From positions 11,278-75,277 of the forward strand of contig DATHBR010000035.1 of the NCBI GenBank assembly GCA_035296065.1: DNA of 64,000 nucleotides, given 5' to 3'. Below, piece after piece: positions 20,153 to 29,556 of the stretch. The translations under genes were made by a program, and so were the position numbers. This DNA is from Myxococcaceae bacterium (lineage in GTDB: Bacteria > Myxococcota > Myxococcia > Myxococcales > Myxococcaceae). Positions within the stretch are counted from its first letter, which is position 1. Each line of letters opens with the position of its first letter. The notes under the pieces are model-generated. The model ran no database searches. It was not told where the DNA came from and worked only from the letters and a program-made list of their open reading frames with translations.

Positions 20153-20326
20153 GATTCTTCCTCCGTGGAGACACGCAGGCTCTAACACATCCCCGCAGTG
20201 CCCCCCTATGAGGGGGCTCGTTGGGGCTCAAGCCATCCTTCCAGGGATGACGCATCAGGTCACCCCCCGGTCCCCGCCCTGGCACCGGGTGGCCGCGGCG
20301 GCCCGGGTGCTGCACAATCACGGGCG

Positions 20327-21106
20327 ATGAACCTCGAGCAGGCGATGCAGGACTTCATTCAGCGCACCCCCCTGGCGATGCTGGGTGTCATCACCGCGGT
20401 GGGCTTCGCGGGGATCTACTTCGGCCTTGGAGGGCTGGGGTGGCTGATGGCCCGCCGCGTGCTGCCCCGGTGGGGCGTGGGCCGGGTCATCGACGAGCGG
20501 CCCCTGCGCCCCGGCCAGGTGCGCGAGGAGGTGCGCTGGTCGCTGGTGTCCATCGCCATCTTTGGCGGCTATGGCGCGCTCACCCTGTGGCTGGGCACGC
20601 GGGGGTTCGCCACCCTTCGCTGGGAGCTGACGGCGGGCGGGCTGCTGAGGGATCTGGTGGTGCTGGCGATCTGGAACGAGGTGCACTTCTACGTGTGCCA
20701 CCGCCTGCTGCACACGCGGTGGCTGTTCCGGCACGTGCACTCGGTGCACCACCGCTCGCGGGTGCCCACGCCGTTCTCCACCTACGCCTTCCACCCCGTG
20801 GAGGCCACGCTGCTGGGCAGCGTGATGGTGCTGCTGCAGCTGTTCTACGACGTGAGCATCTACGGGGCGATCTTCTACCCGCTGGTGAGCCTGACCATGA
20901 ACACGCTGGGGCACCTGAACTACTCGGTGCTGCCGGGACACTGGTGGTCCGCGCCGCTGCGCGCCAGCGAGCACCACGGGCTGCACCACCGCAAGGTGCA
21001 GGGCAACTACGGCTTCCAGCTGCCCGTGCTCGATCAGGTGCTGGGCACCGAGTTGTCCGCCTCGGGCCCCGCCCCCGCAGCCGCCGAGCCGGCCCGGCCC
21101 GCCTGA
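20327..21106 (+). CDS. Fatty acid hydroxylase / sterol desaturase family integral membrane protein
   Basis: Histidine boxes HFYVCHRLLH, HSVHH, HHGLHH. Multiple TM helices. Confidence 0.85.
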   Translation: MNLEQAMQDFIQRTPLAMLGVITAVGFAGIYFGLGGLGWLMARRVLPRWGVGRVIDERPLRPGQVREEVRWSLVSIAIFGGYGALTLWLGTRGFATLRWELTAGGLLRDLVVLAIWNEVHFYVCHRLLHTRWLFRHVHSVHHRSRVPTPFSTYAFHPVEATLLGSVMVLLQLFYDVSIYGAIFYPLVSLTMNTLGHLNYSVLPGHWWSAPLRASEHHGLHHRKVQGNYGFQLPVLDQVLGTELSASGPAPAAAEPARPA

Positions 21107-21221
21107 GCCCTGCGTCCCGCGGTCCTTGACATGCCGCGTCAAACCGGGGCTGGGGGGCGGGGTTCGTTTTGAACCCCAGCAGCTTGCATCCCACCGGGGG
21201 TCACGTGGATAAGAGGGCGCC

Positions 21222-22649
21222 ATGAACAACACCACCGTACTTGCCTCCTCCGATCGCATCTGGGAGCAGGAGATCGTCCCGCAGCTGAAGCGCTACATCC
21301 GCATCCCCAACAAGTCGCCCTCCTTCGAGCCCGACTGGGTGAAGAAGGGCCACATGGAGCAGGCGGTGAAGCTCATCGCCGACTGGGCGCAGGGCCAGGC
21401 GGCCCACATTCCTGGGCTGAAGGTGGAGGTGGTGCGGCTGCAGAACGAGAAGGGCGAGCCGCGCACGCCGGTCATCTACATGGAGATTCCGGGCGAGGGG
21501 AAGGACACCGTCCTGCTCTACGGCCACCTGGACAAGCAGCCGGAGATGACGGGCTGGCGGCAGGGGCTGAGCCCCTGGGAGCCGGTGCGCGAGGGCGACA
21601 AGCTGTACGGGCGCGGCGGAGCGGATGATGGGTACTCGGCGTTCGCGTCGCTGGCGGCCATCCGGCTGCTGCGCGAGCAGAAGATCTCCCACTCGCGCTG
21701 CGTGGTGCTGATCGAGGCGTGCGAGGAGAGCGGCTCGTACGACTTGCCGGCGTACATCGAGGCGCTGGCGCCGCGCATCGGGCAGCCCAGCCTGGTGGTG
21801 TGCCTGGACTCGGGCTGCGCCAACTACGAGCAGCTGTGGATGACGACGAGCCTGCGCGGCCTGGTGTCGGGCAACCTGCGGGTGGACATCCTCACCGAGG
21901 GCGTGCACTCGGGCGATGCGAGCGGGCTGGTGCCCTCGTCGTTCCGGATCCTGCGCCAGCTGCTGGACCGGGTGGACGACGTGGCCACGGGGCGGGTGCG
22001 CGTCGAGGGGCTGCACGTGCAGATTCCGCAGGCGCGGCAGGAGCAGGCCAAGGCGGTGGCGAAGGTGCTGGGCACGGAGGTGTATGACCGCTTCCCGTGG
22101 GTGCAGGGCTCGCGGCCCGTGAGCAATGACGGCACGGAGCTGATCCTCAACCGCACGTGGCGGCCGGCGCTGTCGGTGACGGGCGTGGACGGCCTGCCGC
22201 CCCTGGGCAGCGCGGGCAACGTGCTGCGCCCCTACACCTCGGTGAAGCTGAGCATGCGCATTCCTCCGCGGCTGGACCCGGTCGCGGCGACGAAGGCGCT
22301 GAAGGAGACGCTGGAGAGCAACCCGCCGTACGGGGCGAAGGTGACGTTCGACGGCGAGAAGGCGAGCGCGGGCTGGGACGCGCCGGCGCTGTCTCCGTGG
22401 CTGGAGAAGGCGACGGCGGAGGCGAGCCAGGCGTTCTTCGGCAAGCCCTTCATGGCGATGGGCGAGGGCGGCACGATTCCGTTCATGGAGATGCTGGGCA
22501 AGCGCTTCCCCGAGGCGCAGTTCCTGATCACCGGCGTGCTGGGGCCGGGCTCCAACGCGCACGGGCCGAACGAGTTCCTGCACATCCCGACGGGCAAGAA
22601 GCTCACGGCCTGCGTGGCCAGCGTGGTGTCCGCGCACTTCAAGCGCTAG
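21222..22649 (+). CDS. M20 family dipeptidase
   Basis: LYGHLDKQP and GRGGADDGY motifs, 475 aa. Confidence 0.9.
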   Translation: MNNTTVLASSDRIWEQEIVPQLKRYIRIPNKSPSFEPDWVKKGHMEQAVKLIADWAQGQAAHIPGLKVEVVRLQNEKGEPRTPVIYMEIPGEGKDTVLLYGHLDKQPEMTGWRQGLSPWEPVREGDKLYGRGGADDGYSAFASLAAIRLLREQKISHSRCVVLIEACEESGSYDLPAYIEALAPRIGQPSLVVCLDSGCANYEQLWMTTSLRGLVSGNLRVDILTEGVHSGDASGLVPSSFRILRQLLDRVDDVATGRVRVEGLHVQIPQARQEQAKAVAKVLGTEVYDRFPWVQGSRPVSNDGTELILNRTWRPALSVTGVDGLPPLGSAGNVLRPYTSVKLSMRIPPRLDPVAATKALKETLESNPPYGAKVTFDGEKASAGWDAPALSPWLEKATAEASQAFFGKPFMAMGEGGTIPFMEMLGKRFPEAQFLITGVLGPGSNAHGPNEFLHIPTGKKLTACVASVVSAHFKR

Positions 22650-22735
22650 CGCCGCAGCTCATGCAGGATGGCACCGTGCTCCGGGTTGGCCGGGGCACGG
22701 TACGACGGACCATTCAAGACCTCCGGTGGCCCACC

Positions 22736-24178
22736 TTAGCGCGGCTGCCGCCGCTTGAAGCGCAGGCGCACTCCCTCGGGCTGCACGGTGAACGCGTTGA
22801 CTTCGCGCACCGGCGCGGACGGGTCCACCGCCTCCACCTCGAAGTGCCGCAGCACCATGCCAGTGACGAGCGCGCACTCGATGAGCGCCAGGCTGCGCCC
22901 GGGGCACACCCGGCTGCCAGCACCGAAGGGCATCATCAGCCGGGCCGAGTGCGGCAGCGTGTCGGGCGGAGGCTGGGGTAACCAGCGCTCCGGGCGGAAG
23001 CGCTCCGCGTCACCGAAGTAGGCGTTGTCCAGGCACGGCAGCCGGGTGAGCACGATGATGCCGCGGCCCTTCGGCACCGCCACTGCCTCCACCACCGTGT
23101 CCGCATTGGCCTCGAAGTACATCAGCGGCACGGGCGAGCGCAGCCGCAGCGCCTCCTGGGCAACGCCCGCCACATAGTGAAGCTGCTTGAGGTGCGCCAT
23201 CGTGGCAATGGCCTCGGCGCCCAACACCGCGTCCACCTCCTCCCGCGCCCGGGCCTGCACCGCTGGCATCACGCTCAGGAAGTGCAGCATCCAGGTGAGC
23301 GTGTTGGCCGTGGTGTCCTCGCCGGCCAACAGCAGCGTCACCACGTTGGAGTACACCTCCGAATCGGACAACCGCGCCCCACCCTCTTCATCCTGCGCCA
23401 CCAGCATCGCGTCCAGCAGGGTGCGCGGCTTGACGGCCCGCTCGGGCTCGCGCTCCAGCGTGCGGCGCGCCTCATCGATGATCTCCAGGAGCACCTTGCG
23501 CGTGGCGGCCAGGGCCTGATCCACCCGCCGGGCGCTGGGCAGAAGCTTCCAGTAGGGGAACGGCGCCACCACCCGCTGTTGAATCGCCGGGAAGATGACT
23601 TCCAGGTGGCGCTGCAGAGCGTCCGGGCCTTTCAGCTGCGTGTCGATATCCTTGCCGAAGGCCACGATGGAGGTGACGTCCACCGTGTAGCGCATCAGCA
23701 TGGAGAGCATGTCCACGGAGCTGCTGTCCTGGGCGGCGCGCTCGAGCAGGCCCTGCAGCCGTTGAGTCAACGTGACCAGCGCGGGGTAGAAAGTCTCCAG
23801 GTGCGCGGCCTGAAAGCCGGGGTTGAGCAGCTTGCGCTGGCGACGCCAGTTCTCCCCCTCGGCGCCGAAGACGCCCAGCACGCCCATGTCCGCCATGGTC
23901 GCTTCGATGCTCCGGATGCGCCGGAAGGCCGCCGGCCGGTCCACCAGTACCTTGCGGATCGCCTCGGGGTTGGAGAGGACGAGCGTGGGACTGGGGCCGA
24001 GGTTGCACCGATAGACCGGACCGTAGCGCCGCGCCCAATCCTCGAGCGTCAGGTGAATCGTCTCAGGCCGAATCGCCAGGGCATTGCCCAGCAGAGGCAG
24101 TGGACGCGGCCCCGGGAGGGTCTTCAGCGCGCGGGGCGTAGAGGTGGCTTGGGCAGGGGCAGCAGTGGGTTCCATACG
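22736..24178 (-). CDS. Cytochrome P450
   Basis: FGAGSRVCPGRSLA heme loop and AGEDTT I-helix. Start at internal MEPTAAP (ATG at 24176-24178). Confidence 0.9.
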   Translation of the reverse strand, partial: RMEPTAAPAQATSTPRALKTLPGPRPLPLLGNALAIRPETIHLTLEDWARRYGPVYRCNLGPSPTLVLSNPEAIRKVLVDRPAAFRRIRSIEATMADMGVLGVFGAEGENWRRQRKLLNPGFQAAHLETFYPALVTLTQRLQGLLERAAQDSSSVDMLSMLMRYTVDVTSIVAFGKDIDTQLKGPDALQRHLEVIFPAIQQRVVAPFPYWKLLPSARRVDQALAATRKVLLEIIDEARRTLEREPERAVKPRTLLDAMLVAQDEEGGARLSDSEVYSNVVTLLLAGEDTTANTLTWMLHFLSVMPAVQARAREEVDAVLGAEAIATMAHLKQLHYVAGVAQEALRLRSPVPLMYFEANADTVVEAVAVPKGRGIIVLTRLPCLDNAYFGDAERFRPERWLPQPPPDTLPHSARLMMPFGAGSRVCPGRSLALIECALVTGMVLRHFEVEAVDPSAPVREVNAFTVQPEGVRLRFKRRQPR

Positions 24179-24212
24179 TGCAGAGCTTACCTTCCCTGCC
24201 CACCCCAGGGAC

Positions 24213-26270
24213 CTACCCCCGGGGGCGGCGCAGGCGGGTGAGTGCAAGCAGCAGTAGCAGCGAGCCCCACCCGAGCGCGCTGCCCGGGTGCGCGCCACAG
24301 CCACAGCCCACGTCCTCGGGGGTAGGCAGGGGCTCCACCGTCACGTTGAACTGGCACGTGGACTTGTTGCCCCCCTGGTCCGTGGCGGTGACGGTGACGC
24401 GCGTGCTCTCTCCGGCTGGGAAGAGCGTTCCCTCGGGCGGCTCGTACACCAGGGACACCTGCGAGGCCGTGTCCAGGACCTTGACCTCGGGGTAGTCCAC
24501 CACGGTCCCCTCGGCGCTGGCGGCGTCGACCAACAGGCCGCGGGGACAGGTGAGCGCGGGAGCCGCGGAGTCGCGCATCGTCACCTGGAAGGTGCACACC
24601 GACACATTGCCCGCCTCATCGCGCGCCTGGACGCTCACCGCGGTGCTGCCCACCGGGAAGGCCGTGCCCGGCGGGTGGCTGTACTCGAGCTGGGGCTCGT
24701 CGGTGAGATCGTCCGTGGCGGTCACCGAGTACCGCACGGGCGTGCCGGGGAAGCTCGTCGCCTCGAACACCATGTCCGAGGGACACTCCAGCAGCGGCGG
24801 CTCCCGATCGCACAGATCCACCGACCACAGCGCTTCGCCGGCACTGGGGCTCCAGGCGAAGAAGAAGAGCCTCAAGCCCACGCGCGTCAGGCCGTGCGGA
24901 GCCGAGTTGGCGGGGCCCGGGGCAATGTCCATCACCTGTACGGTGCCCTCCGGCGTCCCATCGCTCTTCCAAAGTTCCTGGCCACTCAACCCGTCACTGG
25001 CCGCGAAGTAGAGCGAGTTGCCCACGCCGCGCAGGTTGGACAGCTCCGCGCCCCCGTCCCCGCGGAAGATGTCCTTGACCAGGTAGGTGCCTGCATCCCC
25101 CTCCCTGCTCACCCACAGCTCGGAGCCTGTGACGGGATCGAACGCCTCGAAGAAGACCTTCTTGCCGGCCGCCGTCAGCTTCTGTCCTCCCTCGAGGTTG
25201 GGCCCGGGGAAGGCGTCACGGATGAGGCCCGTTCCCCCGGGCGTCCCGTCGCTCACCCACAGCTCGCGGCCCGTCTTCCCATCATCCGCGATGAAGTACA
25301 GCCTGCCCTGGGCGATGATCAGCTCCGTGGGCGACGAGTCGGCGAAGCCCTCCCAGATGTCCTTCACCCGGGTGGTGCCCTCGAGCGTCCCGTCGCTCGT
25401 CCACAGCTCGCGTCCCAGCGGCCCGTCATCCGCGGAGAAGTAGAGCCTGCCGTTCATCACCACCGGCGAGCCGGGGGAGGAGCCATTGCGGACCACGGGC
25501 CAGATGTCCTTCACCATCGCGGTGCCCGACGGGGTGCCGTCGCTGCGCCACAGCTCCTCGCCGCGGAAGCCGTCTTCCCCCACGAACAGGACGCTGTCGC
25601 CCAGCGCCCTCATCCGAGAGATGGAGCCGCCGACCTGCCCGGGCAGCACGTCCTTCAGGAACGTCACGCCGCCGTCGGTGCGCTCGTACTTCCACAGCTC
25701 CCTGCCGCTCGTGCCGTCGTTGGCGGCGAAGAAGACCCGGTCACCCGCGATGGTGATCTCCTCCGGGCTCGAGCTGCCCGCCCCCGCGAGCACGTCCGTC
25801 ACCCTCACCGTGCCCTGCTCCGTCCCGTCACTGCGCCACAGCTCTCTTCCGGACGTCCCATCGTTGGCGGCGAAGTAGAGGCCTCCATGGCCCACCACCA
25901 GTTGCTGGATGTCCGAGCCCCCGGGGCCTGGCCGGATGTCCCTCACCCGCTGCGTGCCATCCGGACCGCCGTCGCTGCGCCACAGCTCTCTGCCAGCATC
26001 GTCGCTGCCGACGAAATAGAGCGTCCCGTTGGCGGCCGCCGTGAACCCCGTCACCGTGGGGCCGGCGTCAGGTGCCGGGCCCGCGGGCCGCGGATCCAGG
26101 TCTTTGACGAGCATGGGCGACGAGCACTGGTTGTCCAGGCCCGCGCGCTGGTGTGCTCCCGGCCAATCCCCTTCCATGCCGGACTGTGGGCCGCAGCCCA
26201 TCGTGCCTGCGTAGAAGTACCCGCCCATGCACAGCACGAACACGGCGAGACCAAGGGCCCTGGAACGCAT
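24213..26270 (-). CDS. ELWxxDGT-repeat beta-propeller protein with HYR-like domains and MYXO-CTERM-like sorting tail
   Basis: Repeats of RELW[RKT]SDGT (more than 8). CTFQVTM / STCQFNVTV HYR-like modules. C-terminal GCGCG + hydrophobic + RLRRPRG tail. Signal peptide. Confidence 0.85.
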   Translation of the reverse strand: MRSRALGLAVFVLCMGGYFYAGTMGCGPQSGMEGDWPGAHQRAGLDNQCSSPMLVKDLDPRPAGPAPDAGPTVTGFTAAANGTLYFVGSDDAGRELWRSDGGPDGTQRVRDIRPGPGGSDIQQLVVGHGGLYFAANDGTSGRELWRSDGTEQGTVRVTDVLAGAGSSSPEEITIAGDRVFFAANDGTSGRELWKYERTDGGVTFLKDVLPGQVGGSISRMRALGDSVLFVGEDGFRGEELWRSDGTPSGTAMVKDIWPVVRNGSSPGSPVVMNGRLYFSADDGPLGRELWTSDGTLEGTTRVKDIWEGFADSSPTELIIAQGRLYFIADDGKTGRELWVSDGTPGGTGLIRDAFPGPNLEGGQKLTAAGKKVFFEAFDPVTGSELWVSREGDAGTYLVKDIFRGDGGAELSNLRGVGNSLYFAASDGLSGQELWKSDGTPEGTVQVMDIAPGPANSAPHGLTRVGLRLFFFAWSPSAGEALWSVDLCDREPPLLECPSDMVFEATSFPGTPVRYSVTATDDLTDEPQLEYSHPPGTAFPVGSTAVSVQARDEAGNVSVCTFQVTMRDSAAPALTCPRGLLVDAASAEGTVVDYPEVKVLDTASQVSLVYEPPEGTLFPAGESTRVTVTATDQGGNKSTCQFNVTVEPLPTPEDVGCGCGAHPGSALGWGSLLLLLALTRLRRPRG

Positions 26271-26321
26271 CGCGGATCCTCCACTGGCTGGATGCGCCAA
26301 GCATAGCCAGCCAGCGGGGGA

Positions 26322-28697
26322 TCAGGCCGCTCCCTCTTCGAATGCAGAGGGCTTGAAGTACAGCTCGAACAGTCCTCCGAGGAAGAACCGCCCGAAGCGG
26401 CCCACCGCCTCCAGCTGCTCCTTCACGCTGGGTGCGTGTGTCACCCGGAACGTGGAGCACTGGCGGGCGAAGTCATCGACGGAGATCTTCAGCATGCCCT
26501 TGTAGGCCTCGGAGGCCTCAAGCCCCTCGCCGCGCCACACGGTGACGAACAGGGTGGTGGTGTCCTCCCAGAAGTCGATGCCCGGATCGTCCGTGAGCCG
26601 CTTGAAGCCCTCGAGGAAGAAGCGCTCGCCCTCGCGCGACAGCAGGTGCAGCTTGTAGCGCAGCTGCTCGTAGGTGGGCCGCTCGGGGTCCGGCACCAGC
26701 ACGTGGAGCACGCCGTGCGTCACCGTCAGCGAGTGCGCGGACAGCGCGGGCGCCATCACCACCCCTGTCACCTCCATGGGGTGCTCGGAGTCGGCCAGCA
26801 TGCCGTTCAAGTCGTCCACCAGCACGGTGATGACGAAGCGCAGCTCCGAGGCCCCGGGCCGATCCGGGTGGGCGGCCTGGCGGTAGTCCAGGTCCACCGC
26901 GTCCGAGACGAAGCCCTTGAGGCTCTCGGTGAAGCGGATGCCAATGGGCAGCGGCGCCTCGGGGGACGGCAGCTCGGACAGGGGCGAGTAGTCGATGCGC
27001 CACCCCTGGCGCTGGGCCAGCTTGGCGCTGAAGCGCTCGGCCACGGCGGAGATGGTGAGCAGGGGGTTGGCGCCCAGCGAGCGCGGAATGGCGGCCCCAT
27101 CACACACGTAGAGGCCCGGGTGCACGCCGGTGCCCTCGTCGCCGGAGAAGACGCGGCCCTCGTCGTCCACCACGCCCTGGGTGGCGTCATCGCCCATCAC
27201 GCAGCCCCCCAGCGGGTGGGTGACGAGCAGGGCGTTGTCCAGCAACCGGGCCCCCACCGGGTTGCGCACGAAGGTGCCGCCCAGCGCGGCCACGGCCTGG
27301 CGAATCTTCGCCTCGGCGCGCAGGAAGCCCTCCTGCCGGCCCGCACCGGGCCACACGGCGCGCAGCGAGTCTCCCTCCAGCCGCAGCTCGCCGTCGCCCT
27401 CGTCGTGCGTCATGGCGAACAGCGTCTGCGTGTTGTGGATGGCGCCATGGTAGGGCCCGCGCACCAGGCTCTCCGCGACACGGGCCTGCTCCTGCATGGC
27501 GTCGATGACGCCATCGTCCGTGTCCTCGCCGATCAGCGGAGACATGGCGGCGAACAGCGCGGGCAGGTAGCCGGCCAGCGCCGCGGGCACCACGCCCTCC
27601 TCGATCACCATGCCCTCGTCCACGTTCGCCGCGTCGCGCGTGTCGATGATGCCGGTGATGGTGGGGCCCACGGGCTCGGGGTCCTTCAGCTCGTGGTCGC
27701 CGTGGGCAACGGCGTTCACCGGCACGTCCAGGTTGTACCCGAACGCCATCACGTCCCCGTTGCCGGAGAAGTGCTTGCCCAGCTGGGAGGACGTCCTGAG
27801 CCCCGCCTCGCGCGAGCGCAGCAGCAGCTCCGTGGTGCCCAGCGTGCCGGCGGCGAGGATGACGCGATCGGCGGTGAGGAACTGCAGCGGCGCGTCGAAC
27901 AGCTCTCGCCCCACGCCCACCAGCCGGTAGTACACGCGCCAGCAGTCCCCGGCGCGCTCCACGTGGTGCACGGCCACCTGGGTGAACAGGTCAGCGCCAT
28001 GGCGCTGAGCGTCCGGCAGGTAGTTCATCTGCATCGTGTTCTTGGCGCCCACGTTGCAGCCGCTGGCGCAGTCGCCGCACAGCGTGCAGGCGCCCTGCCG
28101 CACCCCCGCGGGGTTGACGCCCGAGGTGAAGTTCACCGCCAGGGGTGGGCGGTAGAACCTGCCCCCCGTGGCCTTGGCCGAGAGCTCCAGCGCATCCAGC
28201 TTGCGCAGCCGCGGGTGCTTCTGCGGGTAGGCCTGCACGGCGAGCATCCGCTCGACGTGGCTGAAGCAGTCCTCCAGCATGCCCCCCACGTCCTCGCGGA
28301 AGCGGGCGGGCCAGCTCTCCTCCCGCAGCACGCGCGGATCCGGCCGCAGCGCCACGCTGGCGTTGATCAGCGAGGTGCCGCCCAGGCCGCACCCGGTGAC
28401 GACGGCCAGGTCTCCCAGCAGGTGCAGCTGGAGCAGGCCCGTGGGAGAGCCCACCTTCAGCTTGCCGAACATCGAGCCCCCAGGCCCCGTCACCTGCGTC
28501 TCGCGCAGGAACTGGGTGCTGTTCTTGGGGAACTCTCCGGGCAGCCGCTCCTTCCCTCGCTCCAGCACACAGACTTTCTGGCCCGCCCGAGCCAGCCGCG
28601 AGGCGGCAATGGCTCCTCCGTAACCAGAACCAACGACAACCACGGGCCAGTGCCCGCTCAACCTACCGAGGGAAGAAGACAGCGGTCTCATTGTCAC
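26322..28697 (-). CDS. GMC family FAD-dependent oxidoreductase (cholesterol-oxidase-like) with ~250-aa C-terminal extension
   Basis: Rossmann motif VVVGSGYGGAIAASRLA, 791 aa. Confidence 0.85.
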   Translation of the reverse strand: MTMRPLSSSLGRLSGHWPVVVVGSGYGGAIAASRLARAGQKVCVLERGKERLPGEFPKNSTQFLRETQVTGPGGSMFGKLKVGSPTGLLQLHLLGDLAVVTGCGLGGTSLINASVALRPDPRVLREESWPARFREDVGGMLEDCFSHVERMLAVQAYPQKHPRLRKLDALELSAKATGGRFYRPPLAVNFTSGVNPAGVRQGACTLCGDCASGCNVGAKNTMQMNYLPDAQRHGADLFTQVAVHHVERAGDCWRVYYRLVGVGRELFDAPLQFLTADRVILAAGTLGTTELLLRSREAGLRTSSQLGKHFSGNGDVMAFGYNLDVPVNAVAHGDHELKDPEPVGPTITGIIDTRDAANVDEGMVIEEGVVPAALAGYLPALFAAMSPLIGEDTDDGVIDAMQEQARVAESLVRGPYHGAIHNTQTLFAMTHDEGDGELRLEGDSLRAVWPGAGRQEGFLRAEAKIRQAVAALGGTFVRNPVGARLLDNALLVTHPLGGCVMGDDATQGVVDDEGRVFSGDEGTGVHPGLYVCDGAAIPRSLGANPLLTISAVAERFSAKLAQRQGWRIDYSPLSELPSPEAPLPIGIRFTESLKGFVSDAVDLDYRQAAHPDRPGASELRFVITVLVDDLNGMLADSEHPMEVTGVVMAPALSAHSLTVTHGVLHVLVPDPERPTYEQLRYKLHLLSREGERFFLEGFKRLTDDPGIDFWEDTTTLFVTVWRGEGLEASEAYKGMLKISVDDFARQCSTFRVTHAPSVKEQLEAVGRFGRFFLGGLFELYFKPSAFEEGAA

Positions 28698-28706
28698 TTC
28701 CGAGCC

Positions 28707-29423
28707 TCAGCGGCTCGTCCACCAGTTCTTGAATTGCTTCCAGGAGATCTTCCCGGTGCGCTCGGTGTCGATGATGTCGAACGCGATGGCCAGCTCGTCG
28801 TCGGTGATGTTCTGGCCCAGCGCCTCGAGCAGCCGTGCGAAGCCGGGGGCCTCGATGTAACCCGTGCGGTTGCGATCATACTTCTGGAAGATATCCAGCA
28901 GCTCGTTGCCAGAGCTGGTCAGGTCATCCACGGCGGCATGCTCGGGCGCCAGCGGCTGGGTGCCGGCGGAGGTCGTCTCCACCACCTCGACGAGCGGCTG
29001 GGCGGACTGGGAGCTCGCGTGGGAGGACCCACGCAGGCTGCGGATCGCCTGGCCCACCGTCTGCTCGGACTGGGCGCTGGGCTGAGGCTCGGCCGCCTTG
29101 GGGCTGCTGGGCGGCGGCGTCTTGCGGGCCTGGGTGCTGGGGGCCTTGCGGGTGGACTTCCGTGCGGCGGCCTTCTGCGGCGCGGCCCTGGCAGCCGTCT
29201 TCGCGGCGCCCTTCTTCGCGGCGGCCTTCTGCGGCGCGGCCTTCTTTGCGGCGGCGGCCTTCTTCGGCGCGGCCTTCTTCGGCGCGGCCTTCTTCGCGGC
29301 GCTCTTCTTCGGCGCGGCCTTCTTCGCGGCGGCCTTCTTCGGCGCGGCCTTCTTCACGGCGGCCTTCTTCGCCGGCTTCTTCTTGGCGGCAGCGGCCTTC
29401 TTCGTCGGCTTCTTCTTCGCCAT
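28707..29423 (-). CDS. Histone H1-like lysine/alanine-rich protein fused to a C-terminal EF-hand-like pair
   Basis: N-terminal (KKAAP/AKKAA)n repeats over ~95 aa. C-terminus carries DRNRTGYIE and DTERTGKIS loops. Confidence 0.8.
29130..29410. repeat. Coding tandem repeat (15/30-bp period, gccttcttcggcgcggc units) encoding the KA-rich tail
   Basis: Seen in the sequence. In-frame, so not CRISPR. Confidence 0.8.
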
Positions 29424-29556
29424 TCGTTATTCCCCTCCGAGGGTGGGGCGCATCGTATATGTCCGGCCGCCAACACGTCAGCGATTCGATGACGGAGGCC
29501 CCCGGCTGGCTGCTCGGCGCCCCTGTTGCGCGTCGCGTCGCGGTGTGATCCGCGCT

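Follow-up and report, generated by a model that had tools for sequence, protein, structure and literature searches.

The Streptomyces protein DdbA (SCO2075) binds and condenses DNA in vitro through an N-terminal domain resembling histone H1 (PMC3643593). In Pseudomonas, AlgP and PhaF tie polyphosphate and polyhydroxyalkanoate (PHA) granules, respectively, to the nucleoid via KPAA-type tails, and the number of algP repeats differs between clones (PMC11894788). Here we describe a 238-residue protein in which a polycationic, H1-like tail precedes a pair of EF-hands. It is encoded in a 64,000-nucleotide stretch of DNA from a Myxococcaceae bacterium (GenBank assembly GCA_035296065.1, contig DATHBR010000035.1, positions 11,278 to 75,277; the whole stretch is hereafter called the window), where its open reading frame runs from an ATG start on the minus strand at 28707..29423. 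Because the tails of DdbA, AlgP and PhaF act as anchors to DNA or another polyanion when fused to structured modules, we propose such a role for the tail of this protein.

The window protein resembles DdbA in its N-terminal Lys/Ala-rich H1-like tail, in the small structured regulatory domain at its C-terminus and in its host, a developmentally complex, high-GC soil bacterium. The C-terminal domain of DdbA, however, is a DksA-like zinc-finger/coiled-coil domain acting on RNA polymerase, and the two proteins share no homology outside the low-complexity tail. With AlgP and PhaF it shares an A/K/P repeat tail on a structured targeting or oligomerising module, and its family shares with AlgP a variation in repeat number; in the Pseudomonas proteins, by contrast, the tail lies at the C-terminus and is much longer, with 54 repeats in AlgP, and there is no metal-binding domain. 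Eukaryotic linker histone H1, chlamydial Hc1/Hc2 and the H1-like proteins of Burkholderia and Bordetella have a similar Lys/Ala/Pro-rich, acid-free composition. The EF-hand part is predicted to have the four helices, two 12-residue loops and short beta-bridge of a calmodulin or troponin C lobe, but the window protein has one lobe rather than two, carries it on a 170-residue disordered region and lacks the acidic residue at position 12 of both loops.

Two further proteins are comparable in concept. In eukaryotes, DREAM (KChIP3) is an EF-hand protein with Ca2+-dependent DNA binding; unlike the window protein, it has four EF-hands that touch a specific DNA element directly, no polycationic tail and an unrelated origin. 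The myxobacterial CarD of García-Heras et al. (2009, PNAS 106:13546; cited in PMC8156234) is reportedly a modular regulator that binds DNA through a K/A/P-rich H1-like end, although there the basic region is said to be C-terminal and joined to an RNA-polymerase-interacting CarD_CdnL_TRCF domain. For the window protein, we give an even chance to the reading that it is a cytoplasmic two-module protein, with a tail that tethers it to DNA or another polyanion and an EF lobe that serves as a partner-binding or dimerising module.

Results

A basic tail, predicted to be disordered, is joined to a single EF-hand lobe

We observed that the C-terminal part of the protein exceeds the Pfam cut-offs for several EF-hand models. 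These are EF-hand_6 (5.1e-12, 44.8 bits against a gathering cut-off of 25), the EF-hand_7 pair (PF13499; 1.5e-10 over residues 174-235, 41.7 bits against 30), EF-hand_1 (1.3e-08, 34.2 bits against 25.4) and EF-hand_8 (5e-07, 29.8 bits against 28). A sequence search of the PDB aligned residues 80-148 of calmodulin, its C-lobe, to the same part of the protein at about 1e-11, and identity to calmodulin and troponin C lobes is 25-33%. In the AlphaFold2 model, helices are predicted at residues 174-182, 192-201, 208-218 and 228-237 and strands at 189-191 and 225-227, with a predicted local distance difference test score (pLDDT) of 79-92. Foldseek matched this model to the calmodulin N-lobe 3uct_B with a template modelling (TM) score of 0.88 and a root-mean-square deviation of 1.3 Å, and troponin C was matched as well. 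The model suggests that residues 172-238 form a single calmodulin/troponin-C-like lobe of four helices with a short beta-bridge between the loops. The lobe terminates in an invariant F..WW..R, and the C-terminal segment 148-238 is acidic (net charge -6, isoelectric point 4.56).

The tail, residues 1-102, comprises 41 Ala, 34 Lys and 9 Pro (82% Ala/Lys/Pro), carries a net charge of +38 with an isoelectric point of 12.0 and contains neither Asp nor Glu. Eleven KK[AGS]A[APV] pentapeptides fall within it. In the full-length AlphaFold2 model the tail is predicted to be disordered (pLDDT 47-53, no secondary structure), as is the whole of residues 1-170. Its short tandem repeats, lack of acidic residues, strongly basic character and predicted disorder are those of H1-like A/K/P repeat tails. 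A first-pass annotation, made from the DNA sequence alone, had described the product as an H1-like KA-repeat tail fused to an EF-hand pair; the open reading frame, the composition and the profile searches agree on this fusion, and the Pfam scores, the calmodulin match and the predicted fold bear out the EF-hand assignment of the C-terminal domain.

The same annotation had likened the tail to H1 and Hc1. This likeness stands for the composition of the tail but not for profile scores, all of which are sub-threshold: HC2 (PF07382) reached 33.5 bits (cut-off 40), NF038052, the Hc2 model of NCBIfam, 17.9 bits (cut-off 135) and the Burkholderia H1-like model NF038053 37 bits (cut-off 80). Profile searches at E <= 10 found no Linker_histone globular (winged-helix) domain and no Hc1 match in the window protein. 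Judged from sequence, the resemblance of the tail to H1, Hc2 and the Burkholderia H1-like proteins is compositional only and does not imply common descent. A whole-protein scan of a genome collection returned only two loci, both tail-only matches, with 60-63% identity over residues 10-89, in metagenome-assembled genomes (MAGs) of Bryobacterales (L001 6001-6156) and Alphaproteobacteria (L002 6001-6141). We rejected both as relatives, since they match the KA tail alone and by composition; such KA stretches illustrate the wide spread of H1-like tails, which creates false relatives. The peptide patterns used in that scan were too specific for the Myxococcus orthologues, which were recovered by protein searches.

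We found no signal peptide, lipobox or Tat motif in the window protein, and the maximum 12-residue hydropathy in its first 60 residues is -0.18. A secreted low-complexity linker was rejected because there is no hydrophobic N-terminal segment. The missing export signals also bear on the possibility of an adhesin exported without a signal to the surface or matrix, similar to mycobacterial HBHA or laminin-binding protein, whose tail would bind sulfated glycans or extracellular DNA. HBHA has a lysine-rich tail and has been discussed as a nucleoid-associated protein as well as an adhesin of the cell surface (PMC10665949). Low-affinity EF loops would, moreover, suit the millimolar Ca2+ found outside the cell. 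However, there are no secretion genes near the EF-hand gene. EF-hand lobes of this kind are typically cytoplasmic, and we consider an exported adhesin very unlikely.

Between tail and lobe, the linker contains a weak short helix at residues 123-132 (window 29028-29057; pLDDT of the block about 59) in the AlphaFold2 model, which is conserved among close relatives only. It is followed by a motif at residues 149-172 that is nearly invariant across the family, with S152, L158, H162, A163, V165, D166, T169, S170 and G172 invariant. Two AlphaFold2 runs predicted this motif to be disordered (pLDDT about 48-50), and in neither run was it structured or docked on the EF lobe. We regard it as a candidate short linear motif for binding of a partner, self-association or phosphorylation. 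Its Ser/Thr-rich ETTSAG...LTSSG sequence could be a putative phosphorylation site.

Both calcium loops of the window copy have lost Glu12

We assessed the two loops with the PROSITE pattern PS00018, which asks for D at position 1, D/N/S at position 3, D/E/N/S/T/G at position 5 and D/E at position 12 of a 12-residue loop. No match is present in the window protein and two are present in the M. xanthus orthologues; 15 of the 102 homologues described below have none. Both M. xanthus-type loops, DRDRTGTIDRAE and DTDRTGKISWNE, fit the pattern, and the outgroups fit it at both loops too. Position 12 normally supplies a bidentate carboxylate and with it two of the seven Ca2+ ligands, and natural Glu-to-Gln loops have been described as degenerate (PMC12609707). 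Against a background of 1324 EF-type loops from 141 unrelated library proteins, where this position is Glu in 90.4% and Asp in 4.2% (94.6% together), Gln and Gly account for 1.5% and 0.2%. Since both loops have lost the bidentate Glu12, the window copy is predicted to show weak Ca2+ binding or none, with its fold and function kept.

To place these substitutions in the history of the family, we used a neighbour-joining tree rooted on distant relatives, in which the doubly substituted G12/Q12 state is nested and derived. Gln12 in loop 2 characterises a clade to which Stigmatella and Hyalangium belong, and Gly12 in loop 1 arose inside this clade, in the window lineage. The 12 most distant homologues have an acidic position 12 in both loops. 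Within the family the acidic residue was lost several times independently: its replacement in loop 1 is Gly, and that in loop 2 is Gln, Ala, Lys or Gly. In loop 2, all 32 of the 32 sequences with Glu at position 3 have a non-acidic residue (Gln or Ala) at position 12; Asp3 occurs with either state. The tree and the acidic position 12 of the most distant homologues suggest that the ancestral form had two canonical loops, as the M. xanthus protein has, and in both cases these probably bind Ca2+. The window copy is the family member least likely to respond to calcium. The earlier proposal of a Ca2+-responsive protein is doubtful for the window copy, with Gly in loop 1 and Gln in loop 2 at position 12.

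It is conceivable that the window copy is nonetheless a true Ca2+ switch on the nucleoid. Glu9 in loop 1, and Glu3 together with Gln12 in loop 2, would then offset the missing Glu12, and Ca2+ would neutralise or open the acidic lobe and so change the compaction of DNA by the tail. The exclusive pairing of Glu3 with a non-acidic position 12 hints at such ligand compensation; the EF-hand pair has good profile scores and retains most of its ligand positions, orthologues have canonical loops and the loops, too, are under strong purifying selection. Yet two of the seven ligands are at stake at position 12 (PMC12609707), a Gly there offers no side-chain ligand, neither window loop satisfies PS00018 and both substitutions are rare in the background. 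As weak evidence in the same direction, the top matches by TM-score (3uct, 2pq3 and 3ucw) are closed, apo-like or Mg/Zn-bound calmodulin N-lobes. We rate a Ca2+ switch in the window copy as rather doubtful.

The layout is conserved and the C-terminal part is under purifying selection

A search with the non-repetitive half of the window protein found 102 homologous proteins, nearly all of which consist of a basic tail followed by an EF pair, with lengths of about 187 to 258 residues. The genus names among them are Myxococcus, Corallococcus, Pyxidicoccus, Stigmatella and Hyalangium, and the genus-named members are all Myxococcaceae except for one record labelled Comamonas. One homologue is named 'histone H1-like repetitive region-containing protein' by NCBI. 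The exceptional record ('Comamonas sp. JC664'; P0269, in the cluster of P0094) is a typical Myxococcus-type protein of 214 residues with the loops DRDRTGTIDRAE and DTDRTGKISWNE, and its assembly is probably mislabelled or contaminated.

An exhaustive HMMER search of 1.84 billion representatives added a few further distant relatives (P0110, P0121, P0198 and P0252-P0258). In most of these the Lys/Arg/Pro/Ala tail is shorter, a "P.H..V" element related to that of the family is present and the loops of the EF pair are canonical; the relatives that are most distant combine a short basic tail with a PPMH motif, and P0258 is nearly tailless. The remaining strong matches were unrelated multi-EF-hand proteins, mostly several hundred to several thousand residues long. 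Because the combination of a basic tail and one EF lobe is kept in the distant short-tailed relatives and the other strong matches are unrelated, we conclude that a basic disordered tail plus one EF lobe is the conserved layout, of which the long KA expansion is the Myxococcaceae version. A distant family member of 153 residues (P0100, L007 8001-8462) has a short K/A/P tail, a canonical loop 1 and Asp at position 12 of loop 2; on its 20-kb metagenomic contig, its gene adjoins one for a cytochrome c and others that encode PSD/PSCyt domains.

Next to this conservation of layout, we determined the ratio of nonsynonymous to synonymous substitution rates (dN/dS) for the last 91 codons, which include the conserved motif 149-172. 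Among the window, Hyalangium, Stigmatella and M. xanthus genes, dN/dS is 0.08-0.20. Strong constraint despite the repeated loss of Glu12 suggests that the conserved job of the lobe is more than high-affinity Ca2+ binding.

Tail length varies between relatives

Tandem Repeats Finder reported a period of 15 with 15.0 copies at 29190-29420 (score 222) and a period of 30 with 8.2 copies at 29164-29409, the repeat units of 15 and 30 bp that the first-pass annotation had read from the tail DNA. A separate repeat search found 11 in-register copies at 15-bp spacing. The 24-nucleotide direct repeat GCGGCGGCCTTCTGCGGCGCGGCC is present in two copies 54 bp apart, ending at 29187 and 29241. Three database proteins, P0001 (220 residues), P0002 (227 residues) and P0003 (238 residues, the window protein), have identical C-terminal 148 residues and differ only in their tails, and the 18 residues absent from P0001 relative to P0003 fall exactly between the two copies of the direct repeat. 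In the M. xanthus group, proteins span 187-208 residues, and the lengths 187, 192, 197 and 202 are steps of five residues. These variants confirm the expectation that tail length differs between strains, among which it would drift via slippage or recombination in the 15-bp repeats.

The gene is genuine and starts with the tail

Third codon positions have a GC content (GC3) of 0.96 in both tail and linker, 0.90 in the EF part and 0.94 in the whole gene, in a window with a GC content of 0.69. The window protein is 100% identical to HLL01613.1 (database entry P0003), which lies on a 231-kb MAG contig and bears the record title 'MAG TPA: EF-hand domain-containing protein [Myxococcaceae bacterium]'. 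Codon statistics, the ribosome-binding site (Table 1) and the identical public entry establish the EF-hand gene as genuine. Long open reading frames on the opposite strand, such as 26436..29492 (+), were dismissed as the usual artefacts of high-GC DNA. A promoter scan of the gene found no sigma-70-like promoter, and terminator-like matches were not above shuffled expectation.

Public gene calls for the family conflict. Five entries (P0073, P0079, P0080, P0020 and P0031) have 91 residues and drop the tail, beginning at an internal GTG (Val148) with 'METSSAG...', and two (P0063 and P0075) carry a 26-residue N-terminal extension, 'MGWGA...REGFI', ahead of the conserved MATKSRK start. Gene callers seem to have been misled by the low-complexity, GC-rich 5' ends of these genes. 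Taken at face value, the 91-residue entries would mean that the tail is untranslated and that the true product is the EF lobe alone, translated from the internal GTG. This is at odds with a GC3 of 0.96 over tail and linker in the 238-residue frame, with the ribosome-binding site ahead of the upstream ATG, with an N-terminus that is kept among relatives whose length differences are all in-frame, and with the basic tails of distant relatives. We ruled out the truncated product on codon statistics and conservation of the N-terminus, and consider it extremely improbable.

Genomic neighbourhood and expression

The coordinates of the protein's parts and of its neighbouring genes are collected in Table 1. 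The gene for a GMC-family oxidoreductase starts 9 bp past the stop of the EF-hand gene on the same strand, and with so short a gap the two are possibly co-transcribed. The order of EF-hand, GMC and HYR genes is common to Hyalangium (L006) and nearly so in Stigmatella (L004), where the GMC gene is one gene away. This order is not shared by M. xanthus (L003 3637-9456), where the orthologue sits between a divergently transcribed gene for a 659-residue RIO1-family kinase and one for a 944-residue hybrid histidine kinase with PAS, HisKA, HATPase, receiver and Hpt domains, the latter starting 43 bp downstream of the orthologue. We therefore read the EF-GMC-HYR neighbourhood as synteny among close relatives, absent in M. 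xanthus, and not as the signal of a functional operon. The run of oxidative-enzyme genes at window 20198-28697, which has an M20 peptidase among its genes, is possibly a cluster for the modification of lipids or sterols.

In four genomes, the EF-hand gene has no polyphosphate or PHA genes next to it. Their absence counts against a role as a granule or condensate tether in place of a general chromatin protein. In such a role the tail would bind polyphosphate granules and space or anchor them as AlgP does, and the EF lobe would read or use divalent cations at the granule surface. The KPAA-repeat protein AlgP is located at polyphosphate granules and sets their spacing, PhaF acts likewise on PHA granules, and polyphosphate granules, first described as nucleoid-embedded in M. 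xanthus, are enriched in Mg2+/Ca2+ (PMC11894788). The layout of a structured module with a KA tail is alike in principle, but the structured modules themselves are unrelated (a coiled coil in AlgP, a phasin domain in PhaF). A role as granule tether seems quite unlikely to us.

On the other side of the EF-hand gene, a 762-residue product shows the complete domain layout known from the eukaryotic Major Vault Protein (MVP), with matches to MVP_shoulder (2.3e-45), Vault_2 (1.6e-32) and Vault (2.2e-30) as well as to Vault_3 (1.6e-21) and Vault_4. An MVP gene was not found within 6 kb of the EF-hand orthologue in Stigmatella, Hyalangium or M. xanthus, and a literature search returned no paper that pairs major vault protein with myxobacteria.

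By name, size and map position, MXAN_2316 is a probable candidate for the M. xanthus orthologue. The entry is given as "calcium-binding protein", 675 bp, at 2.69 Mb and in developmental group 5, with expression values of 533.5, 346.6, 531.2, 465.4, 224.1, 172.7 and 178.4 in the seven samples of a developmental RNA-seq series (PMC6791715 supplement). In another M. xanthus strain, the orthologue lies at 2.64 Mb.

Table 1 Features of the EF-hand gene and its surroundings, in window coordinates.
Feature	Position	Strand	Basis or remark
Fatty-acid-hydroxylase/sterol-desaturase-family protein	20198-21106	+	Domain annotation
Cytochrome P450	22736-24304	-	Beyond the HYR/PQQ-repeat gene
HYR/PQQ-repeat protein	24213-26300	-	Downstream of the GMC gene
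GMC-family FAD oxidoreductase, 791 residues, C-terminal extension of about 230 residues	26322..28697	-	Domain annotation
Complete EF-hand gene	28707..29423	-	Stop codon at 28707-28709
EF-hand pair, residues 172-238	28710..28910	-	Pfam, PDB sequence search, AlphaFold2, Foldseek
EF loop 2, residues 219-230, begins DTERTGKIS	28734..28769	-	Position 3 Glu, position 12 Gln; Asp and Glu ancestral
EF loop 1, residues 183-194, begins DRNRTGYIE	28842..28877	-	Position 12 Gly; Glu ancestral
Conserved motif ending (D/E)LTSSG, residues 149-172	28908..28979	-	Family alignment
Linker, residues 103-147	28983..29117	-	Neutral, Ser/Pro/Gln-rich
Polycationic Ala/Lys/Pro tail, residues 1-102	29118..29423	-	Composition, AlphaFold2
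Tandem 15-bp/30-bp repeat DNA encoding the tail	29164..29420		Tandem Repeats Finder, repeat search
Shine-Dalgarno-like GGAGGGG	29432..29438	-	8 nucleotides upstream of the ATG, read from the sequence
Major Vault Protein-like gene, 762 residues	30857-33145	-	1.4 kb from the EF-hand gene

Discussion

In the two-module reading that we favour, the disordered cationic tail would stick without sequence specificity to DNA or to a different polyanion (polyphosphate or RNA, for example). The EF lobe and the 24-residue motif before it would be the specificity end, in contact with a putative partner or with a second copy of the protein itself. The whole would then serve to hold the partner at the nucleoid, or else to bridge DNA and condense it. 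Where the loops are intact, Ca2+ would modulate the contact made by the lobe, and it would have little or no role in the window copy. For the latter we infer polyanion binding, partner binding or dimerisation, and a reduced affinity for Ca2+.

Several points weigh against this reading. For every member of the family, binding of DNA or another polyanion, binding of Ca2+ and oligomerisation rest on inference, and the partner of the lobe is only putative. The AlphaFold2 monomer model assigns no role to the conserved motif. In the window loops, many potential ligands are retained, namely Asp1, Asn3, Thr5 and Glu9 in loop 1 and Asp1, Glu3, Thr5 and Ser9 in loop 2, together with a Gln12 whose amide oxygen is capable of ligation. 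The coupling of Glu3 to a non-acidic position 12 could reflect ligand compensation or mere shared ancestry, and residual or altered metal binding by the window loops, for example of Mg2+, is possible.

A more far-reaching proposal, which we think speculative and on the whole unlikely, is that the family is a Ca2+-regulated chromatin protein or a Ca2+-regulated tether between polyphosphate granules and the nucleoid, with the window lineage as a natural "calcium-blind" variant. In species with canonical loops, such as M. xanthus, Ca2+ on the EF lobe would then shift partner binding or self-association and thereby alter the compaction of the nucleoid in growth and development.

The first-pass annotation had called the combination of the two modules unusual. 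In the literature it is: our search found no paper describing a fusion of an H1-like tail to EF-hands, and none naming MXAN_2316 in its main text. In genomes, however, the fusion is not rare but family-wide in the Myxococcaceae, where it is automatically annotated as "EF-hand domain-containing protein". It is therefore already in public annotation under generic names; what it adds is one more structured partner for bacterial H1-like tails and, for bacterial EF-hand lobes, a context that is new.

Few cytoplasmic effectors of bacterial Ca2+ signalling have been identified, and little is understood of how small ions regulate nucleoid-associated proteins. The family described here is an easily cloned candidate to link the two fields, in hosts that show multicellular development, sporulation and nucleoid remodelling. 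Its members with two, one or no canonical loops, in a fold that stays under purifying selection, form a built-in comparative test of the role of Ca2+, and the polymorphism in repeat length of the tail is a marker of strain-level variation. Should the protein prove to be just another basic protein of the nucleoid, with a degenerate EF-like domain used for dimerisation, this would be a modest result, a further partner domain for H1-like tails. If the reading as a calcium-regulated chromatin protein or tether is true, the family would connect Ca2+ signalling directly, at the molecular level, to the architecture of a bacterial nucleoid, and would bring natural loss-of-ligand controls with it.

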